DNA from: a virus
Taxonomy: Duplodnaviria; Caudoviricetes
Virus record (IMG/VR): IMGVR_UViG_3300028048_003227
Span: 32,001 to 96,000 of that record
Direction: 5' to 3' (one strand)
Length of the DNA stretch: 64,000 bases
This document shows, one piece after another, positions 7,977-40,915 of this stretch (positions are counted from its first letter, which is position 1; every line of letters starts with the position of its first letter). Under the pieces are notes generated by a model. It saw only the letters and a list, made by a program, of their open reading frames with translations. It ran no database searches and had not been told where the DNA came from. The position numbers and the translations under genes are program-made.

Positions 7977-8933
7977 ATGATGAATAAAGATGTAAAAGTA
8001 ATTGACCTTAAGAGGTCTTATGATAAGGACTTTGTCCCCTCACAGGAGTATCTGGATTCGATGCCGGATCTCCAGAATGGTGAGTTTACAGGATTAGCTA
8101 TCCCATTTGTTGGTATTCAAAATTTCAAAGTACCAGTAACTGTTCGTCAAAAGGATGGTGGTACACAACAGGTGCTTGCAACTATCTATGCAGAAAACGA
8201 TCTGGATAGTGAACATTTTGGTATCAATATGAGTAGACTTATTCGAGAATGGATACCAACAAGAGATGTTATATTTGATATAAACAGACTTGAAGGTATT
8301 CTCCGAGATTATCAAAAGAAAATGAATTCTTTTGATGCACATGTATTAATGAATTTTCCTTATTATCTTTGGTTACCTTCGTTAAGAAGTCGCGACGAAA
8401 ATGGAAATCTTAATGGTGGTTATCAGGTGTATAATGTTACATTTGATTGTAATATTGATAAGAATGGAGAATTTAAGAAAGTTGTGATTGTAGACTACAT
8501 ATACCAATCAGTTTGCACATGTAGCACTGCACTTGCACAGCATGCTGCTATTACTCGTGGTGTTTACGCAGCACCTCACAACCAGAGAAGCGTGTGTCGA
8601 GTATCTGTGGAATCTGAGGAAATTATTTGGATCGAAGATATTATTGAACATTGTAGGAAAGCTCTTCCCAATGAAACAATGGTATTTTGCAAACGCGAGG
8701 ATGAACAAGCTCATGGTGAGATGGGTGCTCAACCAATGTTTGTTGAAGAGGCTGTTAGAAGAATGGCGGAAGAATTGAATACCGATGAGAGGATTAGAGA
8801 TTGGAGAGTAGTATGTGTCCACCGAGAATCAATCCATAATTTTGATTGTCACTCGATTATAACAAAGGGTATTCCTGGCTCAATATTTAATCACCATATT
8901 AATATTGGAGAATATAAGGATTTGATGGTATAA
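7977..8933 (+). CDS. folE2: GTP cyclohydrolase IB (FolE2/MptA)
   Basis: 'PDLQ', 'VGI', 'GINMSRL', 'SVCTCS', 'PHNQRS', 'KREDE', 'FVEEAVR', 'ESIH'. Confidence 0.88.
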   Translation: MMNKDVKVIDLKRSYDKDFVPSQEYLDSMPDLQNGEFTGLAIPFVGIQNFKVPVTVRQKDGGTQQVLATIYAENDLDSEHFGINMSRLIREWIPTRDVIFDINRLEGILRDYQKKMNSFDAHVLMNFPYYLWLPSLRSRDENGNLNGGYQVYNVTFDCNIDKNGEFKKVVIVDYIYQSVCTCSTALAQHAAITRGVYAAPHNQRSVCRVSVESEEIIWIEDIIEHCRKALPNETMVFCKREDEQAHGEMGAQPMFVEEAVRRMAEELNTDERIRDWRVVCVHRESIHNFDCHSIITKGIPGSIFNHHINIGEYKDLMV

Positions 8934-11217: not shown

Positions 11218-12903
11218 ATGAAACATTTAGCTCAATACTTCATAGAAAAACTTAATATACAAGCACCGGTTCTTGAAGGTGGTGCTAGCGGACATATGCT
11301 CCATCCATTTGATGTGGATGACTTTACAGGTTACGATATAGAAGAACTTATTAAAACTATGTTTGGTGGAAAGATGGAGGGAATGACCGAGAAGATGGAT
11401 GGTTTTGGTATGCAAGCCAGTATGAATGGGAATGGAGAAGTAGTGTTCATTCGTAATAAAACCAATCTTAATAGTGAGAAGGGTGGGATGACACTGGGAG
11501 ACTTCGCTACCCAGTGGGCAGAGAATCCTACAGCTCTTGATAATTATACTCGTGGTGGAAAGATTATAGAGGCTGTGTTTAAGAAAGTAGGTAAGGATTG
11601 GTTTAACCCGGATTCCACCACTCGTCGTGTAGTGAACTGCGAATGTATCCTTGCCGGAACCACAAACACTATTCCATACGCATCCGACCAAGTAGATTTT
11701 CATAATATATGGATATATAAAAAACAAGAAAGTGATAGTGAATGGAAAAACACCGAGGTTACAAAACGCGGACTTGACGTGATCGAGAAAGCCTGTGAAG
11801 GTATTGATAATGCAAAAATCACACCTCAAGTAATTATTAAATATTCTGAGGAAACTGCAAGACTTGAAAAGAAATGGTTAGATGCTTGGAGTAAGTTTAT
11901 AAAAGAATATGATTGTTCTCCGGAAGCGACCATCGAGGGAATTAAGTATAGTCTTTTCTATAAATGGGTAGAAAAGAATATTCCTTGGTTGATGGATGAT
12001 CATAAAGCCAGTATGGATGTGTGTAGGAGATGGTTATTTGGAGATAAGAAAGGATCTGATTGGAAGGATATTAAAGATGTATATAAAGACCATGTTGATG
12101 AACTAGTGAAATTAGACAAAGGAGTGAGTAAAGTCGTTGGTGATGTTCTCCTCCCTCTGCAGAAGTTTTTCTATGGGATGGGTGCAGATGTCATTAAAGT
12201 AACAAGTGGATTCATTAATGATGGACAAGATGGAACCATCAAGTCACTTCTTAAAGACCTTCAAGCAGCAACTGATAAGATTAAGAAAGAAGGATCTCTT
12301 GAAGATAACGAATTCTTACAGAAATGGTTAGATGTATTGAAAGAGATTGGTGAAGAAAACCTTGCGAGTGCTGAAGGTATTGTCTTCTCTTATAAAGGTA
12401 AGATGATGAAATGGACGGGTGGTTTTGTTCCACTTAACCGTATCATTGGTTATAGCAAGTATACTATGAAACCAAAGAGTCTTGTGGAGAGTTTGTTTGA
12501 TAAGGATTTAGTAACAAGTAAAACAGTGCCTGAAAAACTCGCATATGTACTTAAAAAGTTTTTTGGAAATGATGTAGCACTATGTGAGGATCACCAAGGA
12601 TCTACTAAATGGTATGAAGTTAATCCATCTACAATGAATGTTACACCAAACACATCTCTCAATACACGAATTATAAACTATTGTGAGAAGGTAGATGGGT
12701 TAGAGGTGAAGAGAGATAATTTACCAGGATTTTCAATCGCCAAAGGATATAAGATTGGGGATGATGATTATTGGATAAATATAACCTTAATAAAACACAT
12801 GGAGAAAAGTATTAAAGTAAGTAAAGAATTTTATGACTCCATGGTTCTTCCTCATGATCAGAAAGGTGTAGTAGAAAGAGGGTGGGGAGAATGGCAAAGA
12901 TAG
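11218..12903 (+). CDS. Large phage protein (DUF6267-like), putative internal head protein
   Basis: 'EGGASGHMLHPFD', 'TEKMDG', 'EGIVF...KWTG' nucleotidyltransferase-like motifs; MKHL..Y..E leader and an internal 'KSLVESLFD'. Confidence 0.55.
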   Translation: MKHLAQYFIEKLNIQAPVLEGGASGHMLHPFDVDDFTGYDIEELIKTMFGGKMEGMTEKMDGFGMQASMNGNGEVVFIRNKTNLNSEKGGMTLGDFATQWAENPTALDNYTRGGKIIEAVFKKVGKDWFNPDSTTRRVVNCECILAGTTNTIPYASDQVDFHNIWIYKKQESDSEWKNTEVTKRGLDVIEKACEGIDNAKITPQVIIKYSEETARLEKKWLDAWSKFIKEYDCSPEATIEGIKYSLFYKWVEKNIPWLMDDHKASMDVCRRWLFGDKKGSDWKDIKDVYKDHVDELVKLDKGVSKVVGDVLLPLQKFFYGMGADVIKVTSGFINDGQDGTIKSLLKDLQAATDKIKKEGSLEDNEFLQKWLDVLKEIGEENLASAEGIVFSYKGKMMKWTGGFVPLNRIIGYSKYTMKPKSLVESLFDKDLVTSKTVPEKLAYVLKKFFGNDVALCEDHQGSTKWYEVNPSTMNVTPNTSLNTRIINYCEKVDGLEVKRDNLPGFSIAKGYKIGDDDYWINITLIKHMEKSIKVSKEFYDSMVLPHDQKGVVERGWGEWQR

Positions 12904-31430: not shown

Positions 31431-32613
31431 TTTAATAACTAAATAATTTCATTATATTTCGTATATATAAATGAAAAATAAATAATATAATATGTACATT
31501 CCAGATTTTATTCGTAATGCAAAATCAGGAGATATCCTTGCAACAAAATATGGCAATCTTCTTATGGTCGCCAGAGTAGAAATAGAAGGTAAAGATGTTT
31601 GTATTTATCATTATTTTGATTGGTGCGAGAAAATTGGCCTTCAAATGAACGAATGGCTCTATGGATTCTATGGCCCAAGATATGATGAGAATGAGAACTT
31701 CTATCGTCCTGCTACTGATGAAGAAAAGGTTTTCTTCCTCGACAAAATGAAGGAGTTTGGATATGAGCTCCGTGAAATGTATGGGGATATGGTGCCCCAA
31801 CTCACGGCTGATGGATACAAAAAGTTTTACCCAGCGAAAGCATAAAAGATAAATACTATGTGGGAAATAATTAAAAATATCCTCTTATATCTCTACCTCT
31901 CTGCATCAGGACTGTCGTTCATCTGTGTTATAGCAGCGTTGATCTATGTAAGACTGGGTGGAGAATTAGAGATAAAGTACACAAATGAAGAAGAATAAGT
32001 ATGGATGCTAAAGAATTATTTACATATTGCTGTCAGTATGCGTGTGGTATTCTATCCTATGAAGAATACCATTCTATGGGATTAGATGGTTTTCGTAGTT
32101 GGGTGAAGGAACACATCATCCCTATTCCTAAATCAGAACTAGAAGTGGGAAAAGAGTACTCAGGTATTTGTAGAAATTCAAGTAGAGCAATCTGGAACGG
32201 AAAAATATTTCAGTATATGAGAAGGAAATTTGGTAGTGAATTTCTTGAAGAAATCAATCATTATGAAGATGATAATGATGATAGCTATGATGTGTTTGTT
32301 CCAGTAAAAGAAATATTTCGTGAATAAAGCTATTACATCACATAAGAGAAAAAATAATGTGAGGGTCTTGCTCTTGAAGCAAAAGAAGAAATGTATAAAA
32401 CTAAATAGATATGACTTTTATTTGTAAAGAAGATTTAGTAGAAATGCTTACTAAAGAAATGAATATTGCTCACTCGCTTTCTTATAATAGTGAGGGAATT
32501 ATAGATAATCAGGGCAACTATTTACCAGGTTGTGACTTTCATAGGAGCCTTGCACAAATGGAATACAATACCTTAAAAATTGTTTATGACTTTGTTCAAA
32601 ATATGAAAACAAT

Positions 32614-33643: not shown

Positions 33644-33771
33644 GAATATGTGAAGCAGATGGGATGTGCTACTAGAGAAAATCAAAACGCTAGGCACCTA
33701 CTTGAAAAAGTTTGATAGGGAGTTAAGAGAATGTTATTTAGGCTATGTTGGTTCGAATCCAACCATATTCA
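33644..33771 (+). ncRNA. Atypical tRNA-like element with enlarged central region
   Basis: Acceptor GAATATG/CATATTC and perfect T-arm GTTGG-TTCGAAT-CCAAC; no canonical anticodon arm. Confidence 0.55.
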
Positions 33772-33778
33772 CAAGGAA

Positions 33779-34365: not shown

Positions 34366-34519
34366 CGGGATGTAGTTCAGTTGGTAGAATGCCTGGTTTG
34401 GTTACAGTTAACCAATAGCTGAGAAATTGGTGTTCGGATATAATAAAGGAAGATTCATGAGTTCGAATCTCATATATCCGACGACCAGGTGGTCCTCCGT
34501 TCGAGTCGGAGTATCCCGA
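34366..34519 (+). tRNA. tRNA-Pro(TGG) interrupted by an 81-nt insertion (34402-34482)
   Basis: Joining 34366-34401 and 34483-34519 gives a complete cloverleaf with CCTGG-TTTGGGA-CCAGG. Confidence 0.85.
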
Positions 34520-34557
34520 CTTAATAAATGTCATTTAATATTTTATTATATTTATAT

Positions 34558-35418
34558 ATGATAAATATTTGTAAATATTGTGGCAAAAAATTTGAAACTT
34601 CTAACTCAAAACAAGTTTTCTGCAGTAAAGAGTGTAGTGCAAAATATCAACAACAAAATGCAATAGATAGTGTTAAAAAATATAAAGAGATTCGAATTCA
34701 AAAGTATTACGAATCTCCAAAGAAATGCAAATATTGCGATTCTATTTTACCGTATGAAGAGAGATCTAAAACATTTTGTAATTCTTCTTGCGCCGCCGCA
34801 TATAATAATTCAAAAAGAATTAGACATTCTTGGAGTGATGAACAGAAAAAGAATTTATCTGAAATAATGATTAATAAACACAAAGATAATTATAATGATA
34901 ATTCTTCAAACACCACAACCACACCCAGAAAGAAAATATGTAAGTATTGTGGAAAAGAATTTGTTTCTCATCAATTATCAAGTGGTAAATATTCAAGTTC
35001 TAAATTTTGTTCACATGAATGTAAAAGGTTAAACAATATAGAAGTTGGTAAAAAAGCTATAATCATAAACAAAGAAAAAGGAACGTGGAAGCCTTGGCAA
35101 AGTAGAAATATTAGTTCTTATCCCGAAAAATTTTTCGAAAAGGTTTTAGATAATAACTTTATATCATATATAAGAGAAAAATACATTGATGGTTATTTTT
35201 TAGATTTTTATATAGAGAAAAACAATAGAGTTATCGATTTGGAAATAGATGGGGATCAACACGAAGAAACACAGGAAAAAGATCGAATAAGAGATGAATA
35301 TTTAAAAGATCAAAATATTGAGGTGTATAGAATTAAATGGAATTCTATTAATTCAAATAAGGGAAAAGAATCTATGAAAAACAAAATAGATGATTTTTTA
35401 AGTTTCTATAATAAATAA
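34558..35418 (+). CDS. Free-standing endonuclease (zinc-ribbon repeats plus DUF559/Vsr-like domain)
   Basis: Three 'CKYC...FCS..C' units; 'YFLDF...LEIDGDQH...DRIRD...VYRIKW'. Confidence 0.78.
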   Translation: MINICKYCGKKFETSNSKQVFCSKECSAKYQQQNAIDSVKKYKEIRIQKYYESPKKCKYCDSILPYEERSKTFCNSSCAAAYNNSKRIRHSWSDEQKKNLSEIMINKHKDNYNDNSSNTTTTPRKKICKYCGKEFVSHQLSSGKYSSSKFCSHECKRLNNIEVGKKAIIINKEKGTWKPWQSRNISSYPEKFFEKVLDNNFISYIREKYIDGYFLDFYIEKNNRVIDLEIDGDQHEETQEKDRIRDEYLKDQNIEVYRIKWNSINSNKGKESMKNKIDDFLSFYNK

Positions 35419-35428
35419 ACTCATATTT

Positions 35429-36120
35429 GGCCTCGTGGTGGAATAGGTAGACACAAGGGACTCGTAAAGCATTGATTTATAATCATTATAATCAATTATG
35501 GGTTGCACCCTCCGAAAGGAGAGATGTAGAACCTCCCTAATTCGGTGAAAGCTAAGTTTGGATGTACAGGAATGTATCGGATAATCGTCTAAATTAGTTG
35601 GTGAATTATCAACAGTAGTACATAGTTAACTGATTTTCAGTAATGATAGCAGTCGTTTAGAATCTATGTGTAAGAAGACAGTCCAGATATGCTAATACCG
35701 AGCCAATGTTAAAATTACGAAATAGGTGATGCCGTAGGTGAATAGCTTCAGCCGAAAGTACAACACGCCGACCAACCCCAGCGGGAGTATGTTCGTAACC
35801 AATAGACAGTGTGTAGAGACTATACAGGAGGGACCTAAGTTGAAAGTATAATAATGGCGCGAAATTTAGTTAGTTTGTTAACTGCTAATACCGATTATAG
35901 AGATGTATACTCTTCATATCGGTGCTAAAATAAGGTTATTATCTTGCAAGATTTCAATATGGTTAAGAGAGAGTCCAGACCACGAACAATGTTCTCAATA
36001 GATTAAAGAGTTTATTCGCCTACATGGTTCTATTGAATGAAGTTGGTAGCAAAAGCTATAGTGGTACGTAAAATCCCTCGGACAGCAATGTCCGTGCCGG
36101 TTCGACTCCGGCCGGGGCTA
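35429..36120 (+). tRNA. tRNA-Leu(TAA) interrupted by a group I intron
   Basis: Exons 35429-35462 and 36069-36120 give AGGGA-CTTAAAA-TCCCT and a long variable arm. Confidence 0.88.
35463..36068 (+). mobile_element. Group I intron (606 nt, no ORF)
   Basis: 5' exon ends in U and intron ends in G; core elements AATTCGGTGAA (P), AATACCGAGC (Q), GTAGAGACTA (R), AAGAGAGAGTCC (S). Confidence 0.88.
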
Positions 36121-36125
36121 CAAAT

Positions 36126-36344: not shown

Positions 36345-36437
36345 TACGGATTAGCTCAGAGGTTAGAGCTTAATTGGATGAACCCGAGTTCTTACATAAG
36401 GCATCAGTGGTCGTAGGTTCGAATCCTGCATCCGTAG
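36345..36437 (+). ncRNA. tRNA-like element with expanded anticodon arm
   Basis: Intact acceptor TACGGAT/ATCCGTA, D-arm and T-arm; anticodon region about 20 nt too long. Confidence 0.6.
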
Positions 36438-36527
36438 CAAGAACCAACTGGTAGGAGGTAGTATACACAATTGGGTGAGTTGCGAGCTATATTCGCGCTG
36501 TGGGGTGTATAATTTGGTTCTTTTTGT

Positions 36528-38142: not shown

Positions 38143-38440
38143 CGACTTGTACAACTAACGCTTCACGGAATAAACTCGATGGATTGGAGAAACATCGGGG
38201 TGTGAACCGCAAAAGGTGATATAAGCAGGTGTAGGATGATGTCATTAACTCCAAATATAGGACATGTAAAGTAACACTGAAGGGTATCACTGGAAGAGTA
38301 CTAAGAGAAATCCTTTTTAGAGACTGTGTCAACATGTGTTAGTTTAGGTATTGCCCATCAACCAAGCAGTTGAATGGGGTAACGGGATCGCTCGAAGAAC
38401 GATTCTTGGGTTGGCCGCATTACCGTAAATGCGGCATTTT

Positions 38441-38600
38441 GGGAGCATAGCTCAGTTGGTTTAGAGCACCTGCCTTAATACAGGGTAATCCACTGTGACG
38501 GATTAGCAAGATGTTAAAAGTGGTGAAGTGCATAATAAGAGTTCGATTCTCTTCATCTTGCCCAAGCAGGGGGTCATTAGTTCGAATCTAATTGTTCCCA
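38441..38600 (+). tRNA. tRNA-Val(TAC) interrupted by an 85-nt insertion (38478-38562)
   Basis: Joining 38441-38477 and 38563-38600 gives CCTGC-CTTACAA-GCAGG in a typical Val body. Confidence 0.85.
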
Positions 38601-40183: not shown

Positions 40184-40915
40184 ATGAAAGCACTTAAATT
40201 ATCAGCGATAAGCGACCTACACGGAAACCTACCGTCTCCCGATGTTTTTGCCGAAGGAGATGTTCTTTGTATCTGTGGGGACATTGTGCCTCTCGATCTC
40301 CAACAAGATTTTGTAAAATCCATCGCGTGGTTCTGTATGAAGTTTATTCCCTGGACTGACAAACTACCATTCAAGAAGGTCATTCTTGTTTTTGGTAATC
40401 ATGATTTCTTCTCTGAAGAGCTCGGTCCCCGACATTTTAATTCAGCTGACACAGTAACCAGGATGCTCATGCCCGGTAGTATTAGAGGTGAACATAAGAT
40501 AGTTATTCTTATGGATAATTCTTACAAGTACGAGCATTTCACCTTCTATGGAACATCCTGGTGTCCCGATCTCTCCAATTGGGCTTGGTATGGCGATCAT
40601 GATAAACTCGTAAGTGAATACGGGAAGATTCCTACTGGAGTCGATGTCCTTCTCACTCACTGTCCACCGAGATTTGGTTATGCAGGCACTGTCATGCAAC
40701 AAGGGTGGAACTGGATGAATAATTACGGATGTCAGGAACTTGCAGAAGAGATAGATGTCAAAAGACCAAAATGGGTATTTTGTGGTCACGTTCATAGTGG
40801 GGACCATAAGGTGACAACTATTGATGACAGTATCAATATAGTCAATGTGAGTATGTTGGATGAGAATTATAAAATGAATTATCCTCCGTTTTCAGTGAAA
40901 ATTGAAAAACAATAA
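40184..40915 (+). CDS. Metallophosphoesterase
   Basis: 'ISDLHG', 'CGD', 'GNHD', 'LTHCPP', 'CGHVH'. Confidence 0.9.
   Translation: MKALKLSAISDLHGNLPSPDVFAEGDVLCICGDIVPLDLQQDFVKSIAWFCMKFIPWTDKLPFKKVILVFGNHDFFSEELGPRHFNSADTVTRMLMPGSIRGEHKIVILMDNSYKYEHFTFYGTSWCPDLSNWAWYGDHDKLVSEYGKIPTGVDVLLTHCPPRFGYAGTVMQQGWNWMNNYGCQELAEEIDVKRPKWVFCGHVHSGDHKVTTIDDSINIVNVSMLDENYKMNYPPFSVKIEKQ

Follow-up and report, generated by a model that had tools for sequence, protein, structure and literature searches.

A Lak-type tRNA intron with a predicted pseudoknot and miniature tRNA in the tRNA-Val(UAC) gene of a phage related to the Lak megaphages

How could a phage obtain a valine tRNA from a gene whose anticodon is split by 85 nt of unrelated sequence? 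The question is raised by a virus of the class Caudoviricetes (Duplodnaviria), of which we analyzed a stretch of 64,000 nt, positions 32,001 to 96,000 of the IMG/VR record IMGVR_UViG_3300028048_003227; this stretch is called the window, and coordinates refer to it unless given as genome coordinates. The prevailing view allows the tRNA genes of bacteria and their viruses only self-splicing introns of group I and assigns protein-dependent tRNA splicing to archaea and eukaryotes. We find that the insert is a true intervening sequence of the Lak-megaphage type, which sits in the only tRNA-Val(UAC) gene of the phage. The best explanation in our view, to which we assign a probability of about 0.5, is that this Lak-type intron is removed by an RNase Z-like cut at its 3′ end and a second nuclease at its 5′ end, after which a phage ligase seals the exons.

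At 53.7 bits, the Rfam tRNA model aligns to 38441-38600 with a single long insertion, and ARAGORN in bacterial mode, when run without its intron option, skips the gene altogether. The gene and a sister case in a tRNA-Pro gene are laid out as follows.

38441-38477, plus strand: exon 1 of tRNA-Val(UAC), with the acceptor 5′ strand, the D arm, the anticodon stem 5′ strand and loop nucleotides 32-35 (CTTA)
38478-38562, plus strand: intron of 85 nt as read from the sequence, splitting the anticodon as TA^C
38563-38600, plus strand: exon 2, with C36, A37 and A38, the anticodon stem 3′ strand, the variable loop, the T arm and the acceptor 3′ strand
38600, plus strand: A, the discriminator of the tRNA-Val and the last base of exon 2
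34366-34519, plus strand: tRNA-Pro(UGG), with an 81-nt intron at 34402-34482 after nucleotide 36, its parts in equal order

The joined exons form the anticodon loop CTTACAA and are recognized by ARAGORN as tRNA-Val(tac). The original prediction of an 85-nt insertion within the anticodon is thus borne out by the Rfam alignment, by direct reading of the sequence, and by the identity of the product. An uninterrupted phage tRNA-Val (cr131_1) reads ...GCCTTACAAG... across the junction, in agreement with the joined exons, and the likeness between the two genes ends exactly at 38477; in rumen DNA contigs, position 38477 runs directly into CAAGCAGGGGGTC. The second copy that had been proposed in tRNA-Pro is real as well, with 81 nt inserted after nucleotide 36 as opposed to 35/36 in tRNA-Val. 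Each of the two is the sole gene for its anticodon in the phage record, and GTA and CCA account for ∼30% of the Val and Pro codons of the phage; on these two grounds the tRNAs matter to the phage. Just upstream of the tRNA-Val gene, a GC-rich hairpin (GCCGCAT...ATGCGGC) followed by ATTTT occupies 38414-38440 and ends 1 base before the tRNA 5′ end; it is either a terminator-like or a processing hairpin.

Judged from its sequence, the intron would be built of two modules, a 5′ module consisting of A-U-A and a compact pseudoknot and a 3′ module resembling a miniature tRNA. The parts are listed from the 5′ to the 3′ splice site.

38478-38480, plus strand: unpaired A-U-A at the intron 5′ end (family consensus N-U-A, with U2 and A3 invariant)
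38481-38505, plus strand: H-type pseudoknot with loops L1 (GG), L2 (A) and L3 (TGAC)
38481-38483 with 38493-38495, plus strand: stem S1, CAG/CTG, extendable to TACAG/CTGTG (38479-38483 with 38493-38497)
38486-38491 with 38500-38505, plus strand: stem S2, TAATCC/GGATTA, in H-type topology
38506-38513, plus strand: 5′ strand of the closing (acceptor-like) helix, GCAAGATG, with 8/8 pairs to 38554-38561
38514-38536, plus strand: linker of 23 nt replacing the D and anticodon arms, with GG at 38522-38523 in the D-loop-like GTGGTGAAG
38537-38553, plus strand: T arm, AAGAG / TTCGATT / CTCTT, abutting the closing helix to give a 13-bp stack
38554-38561, plus strand: 3′ strand of the closing helix, CATCTTGC, its last base being tRNA position 73
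38562, plus strand: single unpaired C, the last intron base and C74 of the mini-tRNA, with the 3′ splice site just after it

Each helix that had been named beforehand, namely, the pseudoknot, the acceptor-like helix, and the T arm, is found in the sequence together with the terminal C, and the GG of the linker is predicted to be able to form the elbow of a tRNA. The further proposal that the mini-tRNA ends in CCA when read across the junction is true of this copy (GCC/CAA, with the slash at the junction) and not general, as relatives read GCC/TAA, GCC/CTA, GAC/GA and CTC/GA. The CCA appears because exon 2 happens to start with CA, and it is a coincidence of the Val copy alone. A minihelix descriptor run over both strands of the 112-kb genome finds exactly two sites, the Val and Pro inserts, both with a pseudoknot; in 40 composition-preserving shuffles it scores 0.075 minihelix hits, none of which has a pseudoknot, so chance does not explain the inserts. 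Minimum free energy z-scores are weak (-1.28 for the insert and -1.35 for the whole gene); with thermodynamics alone being weak, significance rests on the comparison with relatives. Two candidate features were discarded. A pairing of the exon 1 stem with the intron ACAGG, seen in the minimum free energy fold of the Val gene, was rejected because it is not conserved in relatives, and a G3:U70 alanine identity element in the mini-tRNA was dropped because it occurs in one relative only.

Relatives were collected by pattern scans of viral, metagenome, and genome collections, by ARAGORN in intron mode, and with a covariance model. The resulting family has 18 introns from 9 contigs or genomes: 15 in 8 of them, including both window introns, and 3 from Lak-A1. 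The covariance model (R1) was built from four Val-type introns and finds the other subtypes only at E values of 0.007-0.3. Structures were parsed by script because the MAFFT alignment of Val-type with Pro-type introns was structurally wrong. The linker pattern returns true relatives only in three contigs (L010, L254 and L261), and homologous Pro introns with differing minihelix stems are present in L010, L269, L273 and L217. The 14-mer TACAGTTAACCAAT and a first loose pattern gave mostly chance matches or ordinary tRNAs among the matches listed, and a synteny search with the neighboring 267-aa protein gave no relatives. Among the contigs recovered, L273 is contig C1 (287 kb) of “Bacteroidales MAG RUG12352” (MAG, metagenome-assembled genome), which carries a phage-style tRNA array and a Pro intron as in L269; it is probably a megaphage contig that was binned into a bacterial MAG.

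The 18 introns share one architecture. All begin with N-T-A-(A)-C, continue into an S1 hairpin with the core C-R-G/C-Y-G, carry the linker motif W-GG-(N)-R-A-R, stack an 8-position closing helix directly onto a T stem of 5 bp, and end with that helix plus one unpaired C. The closing helix is fully paired in all but one subtype, which has two U-U pairs. S2, and with it the pseudoknot, is present in 15 of the 18 with ten different S2 sequences; the three Lak-A1 introns have the hairpin only, followed by an A/U-rich spacer. Positions U2 and A3 never vary, and loop 3 consists of 4 nt rich in A. The T loop always lies 13 bp plus 1 nt from the 3′ cut, and the 5′ cut lies 3 nt upstream of the first S1 pair (4 in one Lak intron). 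Excision at N-UAC...helix-C restores a 7-nt anticodon loop and a canonical tRNA throughout (18/18), the products being Val, Arg(UCU) five times, Pro five times, Asn three times, Glu, Gly, Thr, and Phe, all called by ARAGORN except Phe, which was assigned by eye only. The insertion site is 34/35 once, 35/36 nine times, and 36/37 eight times. Because the insertion sites vary while the intron ends are constant, the intron and not the tRNA sets the cut sites.

The helices also bear the marks of selection. Pairing holds at the outer 6 bp of the closing helix in 108/108 cells, over 16 sequences and with 4-5 pair types per position; for shuffled partners, the paired fraction averages 0.43 and never exceeds 0.66. 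The four nearest relatives of the Val intron have 97.5% of their cells paired, against 36-51% in slid controls. These four show seven two-sided pair changes, one in S1, three in S2 and three in the acceptor, a number reached by 0/500 shuffles; the middle pair of S1, for example, switches from A-U to G-C. The exons are canonical in all 18 interrupted genes and have compensatory changes of their own, as in the acceptor and anticodon stems of the Pro genes, so that we find intact cloverleaves and no sign of exon decay. A constant architecture in which the helix sequences change with covariation supports the original proposal of a selected RNA element as opposed to a decaying insertion.

That proposal had also called the element possibly mobile, and here the comparison of alleles is informative. 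A Val-type intron, alike in linker and T arm, sits in the tRNA-Arg(UCU) genes of L010, L254 and L261, inserted at 35/36 or 34/35. The tRNA-Pro genes of L217, with the intron, and of L272, without it, differ at 1 of 76 exon bases, and the gap between them is exactly the 81-nt intron. Lak-A1 and Lak-C1 are likewise separated by a clean 114-nt insertion or deletion with 100% identical flanks, in which the boundaries TTAC...GAGC are confirmed. The comparison with uninterrupted alleles suggested at the outset thus confirms the junctions, and the occurrence of intron-plus and intron-minus alleles with near-identical exons argues that the element is selected and mobile. The intron has no open reading frame (ORF) and no target-site duplication. 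Around the insertion point, the Val and Arg genes resemble each other in their anticodon arms, so transfer by recombination is plausible. L272 is a complete 393-kb megaphage, the Pro and Val tRNA genes of which are uninterrupted. We observed four introns of the Lak-type class in it, all on the complement strand.

L272 2776-2854, complement: intron in tRNA-Gly(UCC)
L272 6031-6116, complement: intron in tRNA-Glu(UUC)
L272 10132-10233, complement: intron in tRNA-Asn(GUU)
L272 10417-10520, complement: intron in tRNA-Arg(UCU)

The genome under study carries many free-standing homing-endonuclease genes, with at least seven of the DUF7487/Vsr-like type and several of HNH or LAGLIDADG type genome-wide, and a DUF559/HNH-like gene (34528-35418) starts 9 nt past the interrupted tRNA-Pro gene.

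The host phage of the intron is a relative of the Prevotella Lak megaphages, as judged from its protein sequences. The IMG/VR record is 112 kb long and estimated to be 69% complete, and the phage DNA is present in bovine rumen runs. Its major capsid protein has its best matches, at 36-38% identity, in a 462-kb uncultured phage, Tenacibaculum phage pT24, and the Prevotella Lak megaphages, and its portal protein is T4-like. A crAss-like origin, considered on account of a 40-nt tRNA-Val match, is ruled out by the capsid and portal proteins. The insert itself has what marks the Lak-type introns: it is a non-group-I insert that interrupts the anticodon loop of a phage tRNA gene complete in all other respects, it holds a tRNA-like fold with an acceptor-like helix and a T arm, and it shares with the Lak-A1 introns the end signature N-U-A-(A)-C...helix-C. 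In Lak-A1 itself (L277), the gene at 11984-12148 on the complement strand, published as a “tRNA-Tyr(GTA) with intron”, encodes a tRNA of class I whose discriminator is G; under the N-UAC...C boundaries it reads as a putative Asn(GUU) gene, and Lak-A1 has a separate class II tRNA-Tyr at L277 9791-9874.

What, then, could cut the intron out? The 3′ end gives the clearest indication. The Rfam tRNA model is the best match on both inserts, with its positions 1-73 on 38507-38561 and 34435-34481, although the match on the Val insert (21.4 bits, E value 0.012) lies below threshold. In this end-to-end alignment, the closing helix comprises the 7 bp of an acceptor stem and one further pair, between position 73 and the base preceding the stem, and the last intron base becomes C74. 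We therefore counted how often ordinary tRNA genes encode C74. Among all ordinary tRNA genes of G000, L272, L277, L010, L261, L269 and L217, C74 is encoded in 84/84 and a full CCA in 11/84; in the nonphage contigs of a Bacteroidales MAG (G005, loci L283-L312), the counts are 25/25 and 3/25. With the terminal C being C74 and C74 always encoded, the 3′ splice site coincides with the end of tRNA-gene conservation, that is, with the position of tRNA 3′ processing. The counts suggest that C74 is retained or used when tRNA 3′ ends are processed in this lineage, and we infer from gene conservation that an RNase Z-like enzyme may cut after C74 in Bacteroidales. A splice site at C74 at a constant distance from the T loop is the main ground for proposing a cut by a tRNA 3′-end nuclease. 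Free-standing mini-tRNAs with a 7-bp stem, a GG linker, and a T arm were also noted outside any tRNA gene in other phage contigs, as follows.

L048 6246-6286: free-standing mini-tRNA
L048 6892-6935: free-standing mini-tRNA
L048 7615-7656: free-standing mini-tRNA
L034 2613-2654: free-standing mini-tRNA
L118 3590-3631: free-standing mini-tRNA

A candidate for the sealing step lies just beyond the window and was found through a homologue search. The features near it, and one close to the tRNA array, are listed here.

Genome 96454-97932: ORF of 492 aa, Rnl2-like RNA ligase
Genome 96454-102827 (L271, L278): cluster of the ligase, a 297-aa ORF, a metallophosphoesterase, a DUF7487 endonuclease (opposite strand), an AAA_28 P-loop protein and QueC
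40184-40915, plus strand: calcineurin-like metallophosphoesterase just downstream of the tRNA array (Pfam Metallophos 44.9 bits; PHROG metallo-phosphoesterase)

The 492-aa ORF scores 32.3 bits with Pfam RNA_ligase (cutoff 27), matches the PHA02142 oligonucleotide/oligosaccharide-binding fold and PHROG 968 “RNA ligase” (the latter at 7e-36), and keeps motifs I (KVHG), IV (EGLV) and V (KLK), which are also kept in its homologue; it thus has the sequence features of an ATP-dependent RNA ligase of the Rnl2 type. Two further intron-bearing records, G001 and the complete G004, encode homologues, and in G004 a gene for a CCA-adding enzyme lies 7 kb from the ligase. Rnl2-type ligases join a 3′-OH to a 5′-phosphate, the ends that RNase Z-type cuts would leave. 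The cluster is possibly an RNA repair module beside 7-deazaguanine genes, and the metallophosphoesterase at 40184-40915 is a possible RNA end-healing enzyme. A FolE2 gene lies at 7977-8933.

Taken together, these data are consistent with the following route. The interrupted pre-tRNA would be transcribed and its mature tRNA domain would fold normally. The mini-tRNA would recruit the host tRNA 3′-end endonuclease, which is RNase Z-like and would cut after the C, and a second, putative endonuclease would cut 3 nt upstream of the pseudoknot. The tRNA body would hold both halves together while the Rnl2-like phage ligase seals the anticodon loop. Metatranscriptome contigs from two rumen metatranscriptomes cover parts of the tRNA array. 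Splicing itself, the cutting enzymes, and the ligase as sealer are all things that we infer, splicing from the conservation of the exons, since mature tRNAs are rarely captured and contigs cannot show absence. More tentatively, and with slightly less than even confidence, we suggest that Bacteroidota megaphages may use a third route of tRNA splicing, in which a tRNA-shaped intron hijacks an end-processing nuclease, the pseudoknot directs the 5′ cut, made by a second nuclease or by self-cleavage, a ligase reseals the exons, and the element spreads as an ORF-less mobile intron.

Several points weigh against removal by an RNase Z-like enzyme, a second nuclease, and the phage ligase. Canonical RNase Z cuts after N73, not C74. 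A scan of ∼50 ORFs of the phage record gave no candidate RNA endonuclease. RNase P was considered for the 5′ splice site and rejected because the geometry is wrong; its expected cut is at the base of the mini-tRNA, between that and the pseudoknot and 28 nt downstream of the splice site. All intron-bearing records except G004 are incomplete, which leaves the co-occurrence of intron and ligase anecdotal. The ligase stands beside a metallophosphoesterase and a P-loop protein, a setting that suits a different end chemistry, and it may, by analogy with T4, serve the repair of anticodon-nuclease damage and not splicing. No 38477/38563 joint is among the joints listed from the contigs of the two metatranscriptomes and of two DNA runs, from which absence is not demonstrable. 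Six-frame family searches of the phage records returned no RtcB, Rnl1, or Sen endonuclease and were negative for a CCA-adding enzyme in the incomplete records; these negatives are weak, given the incompleteness of the records and the fact that a search of this type missed the ligase of this very record.

The company that the ligase keeps lends itself to a different reading, which we regard as unlikely. A metal-independent endonuclease, either encoded by the phage or resembling an anticodon nuclease and supplied by the host, would cut both sites and leave a 2′,3′-cyclic phosphate and a 5′-OH, and these ends would be healed by a phosphoesterase and a kinase before the phage ligase acts, or be joined directly by host RtcB. 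The clustering of the ligase with a Metallophos protein and an AAA_28 P-loop protein, the second Metallophos gene adjoining the tRNA array, and the presence of RtcB in Bacteroides thetaiotaomicron, our control, fit this scheme, which also has no need of an RNase Z cut after C74. Yet the phage records contain no RtcB and no recognizable nuclease in the searches made, AAA_28 is not a polynucleotide-kinase family and could equally belong to nicotinamide adenine dinucleotide metabolism, and a 3′ cut at position 74 together with a conserved elbow mimic would be left unexplained.

The absence of a protein nuclease candidate from the ∼50 ORFs scanned speaks for the idea of a new small ribozyme, in which the pseudoknot and the invariant U-A form an active site, self-cleavage occurs at one or both ends, and the ligase joins the exons. 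The cut positions are fixed by the intron alone, and the unpaired, invariant U2-A3 and the A-rich loop 3 lie by a compact pseudoknot at the 5′ cut. Very few nucleotides are invariant, however, S2 is missing from the three Lak-A1 introns, and the 3′ half is an ordinary tRNA mimic that ends at a protein processing site. Covariance searches with lax filters gave no Rfam ribozyme match on either insert up to an E value of 10, including HDV-like (hepatitis delta virus-like)/theta, hammerhead, twister, pistol, and hatchet. We consider such a ribozyme decidedly improbable. Finally, it is very improbable that the insert is never removed and represents selfish DNA or a nested mini-tRNA-like RNA gene in a nonfunctional tRNA, for while no spliced RNA is among the metatranscriptome joints listed, the genome is crowded with selfish elements (at least seven DUF7487, HNH, LAGLIDADG, a group I-like intron), other phages have free-standing mini-tRNAs, and the host has its own tRNAs, the cloverleaf exons are intact with compensatory changes between phages in 18/18 genes, the boundaries always restore the canonical 7-nt loop, and each gene is the sole one for its anticodon in this phage.

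The Val intron and its 17 relatives provide a testable consensus, consisting of N-U-A, a hairpin or pseudoknot, a 13-bp mini-tRNA with an elbow, and a terminal C74, and a biochemical prediction, namely, that a tRNA 3′-end nuclease makes the 3′ cut and an Rnl2-like ligase seals the exons. If true, tRNA splicing would gain a new pathway and mobile elements a new, ORF-less kind, and there might be a layer of control over phage tRNA supply. Intron-aware boundaries also alter tRNA identities in published megaphage annotations, as in the change from Tyr to Asn described above.

Among known introns, the minihelix-only phage tRNA introns (44-50 nt; L111, L054 and L026) resemble the Val intron in having an acceptor/T-arm mini-tRNA in the anticodon loop. 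They differ in that the 5′ N-U-A/pseudoknot module is missing, the mini-tRNA begins at the 5′ splice site, the stem has 7 bp (a 7+5-bp minihelix), and the end is N-CCA or N-CAA and not N-C. The Val intron falls outside this class: its helix has 8 positions and begins only after the 28 nt of N-U-A and pseudoknot, and its last bases are N-C. Group I introns, as in cyanobacterial and plastid tRNA-Leu(UAA) and in phages, are also mobile and also occupy the anticodon loop of bacterial-type tRNAs. They are defined by a conserved P3-P8 core, a 5′ exon with a final U that pairs with G, and a terminal G, and they usually exceed 200 nt. The Val intron, in contrast, has 85 nt and no P1-P9 core, its 5′ exon ends with A and not U, the intron ends with C and not G, and there is no Rfam Intron_gpI match on the insert up to an E value of 10. 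A tRNA-Leu(UAA)-like gene at 35429-36121 is interrupted by an intron of ∼650 nt that Rfam does not flag; its exon 1 ends with T and its intron with G, which makes it group I-like. Metatranscriptome contig depth there reaches ∼1,700, with many joints, some of the type “goes back”, which could be circles or variants.

The bulge-helix-bulge (BHB) introns of archaeal and eukaryal tRNAs, removed by EndA/Sen and RtcB or Trl1, likewise sit in the anticodon loop with the exon halves held by the tRNA body, and for the Val intron, too, removal from the anticodon loop most likely depends on proteins. No BHB can be drawn for the Val intron, in which CTTA cannot pair with the intron 3′ end CTTG; there is no 4-bp helix between the junctions, and the tRNA_int_endo family (PF01974) is absent from the 69%-complete record. 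Unlike in BHB introns, recognition here would act through a tRNA mimic inside the intron. Such mimics are familiar from the tRNA-like structures of the turnip yellow mosaic virus (TYMV) type and from the tRNA-like domain of transfer-messenger RNA (tmRNA), which, like the Val intron, have a pseudoknot, an acceptor/T-arm mimic, and a substitute for the D loop without a D stem. Mimics of this sort serve as substrates for RNase P and for the CCA-adding enzyme. Both kinds of mimic stand at RNA 3′ ends and end with CCA, whereas the Val mimic is internal, ends with C74, and has an exon after it; ARAGORN found no tmRNA. Two oversize tRNA-framed RNAs were noted at 33644-33772 and 36345-36438, one an 8-bp acceptor and T arm around ∼90 nt and the other with ∼21 extra nt in the anticodon region, and similar ones occur in L010 (958-1066, 1258-1415 and 4620-4781). 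For the last step, Pnk/Rnl1 repair in phage T4, in which a broken anticodon loop is closed again by an RNA ligase of the phage, may serve as a model; the ligase there is Rnl1 and the break is damage inflicted by the host, while here the ligase is of the Rnl2/PHA02142 type and the event would be intron removal.

The closest known system is the set of Lak tRNA introns, reported as “enigmatic”, with no Rfam hit and one that “may encode a tRNA”; the authors also note a one-base shift of the predicted intron (Devoto et al. 2019, Nat Microbiol, Fig. 4 and Table S6, PMC6784885), and our comparison of Lak-A1 with Lak-C1 confirms it. Like the Val intron, they lie in the anticodon loop and run from N-U-A-(A)-C through a hairpin, an A-rich spacer, and a tRNA-like 3′ module to a terminal C. 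They share the lack of an Rfam hit and the presence or absence between strains with identical flanks, and the major capsid protein of the host phage is 37.5% identical to Lak. The Lak-A1 introns differ in having the S1 hairpin without S2, and one of them holds a complete cloverleaf. The Lak paper gives no consensus and no mechanism, and its boundaries are one base off (PMC6784885). A later survey finds tRNA introns that “could encode another tRNA” to be common in jumbo phages with alternative genetic codes (Anim Microbiome 2026, PMC13037316); it gives no structure, boundaries, or mechanism, and the phage described here reads well under the standard code. Our literature searches found no publication on the structure or mechanism of Lak-type introns. 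New here are the consensus architecture, the tie of the pseudoknot form to the Lak introns, the coincidence of the 3′ splice site with C74, and the association with a ligase.

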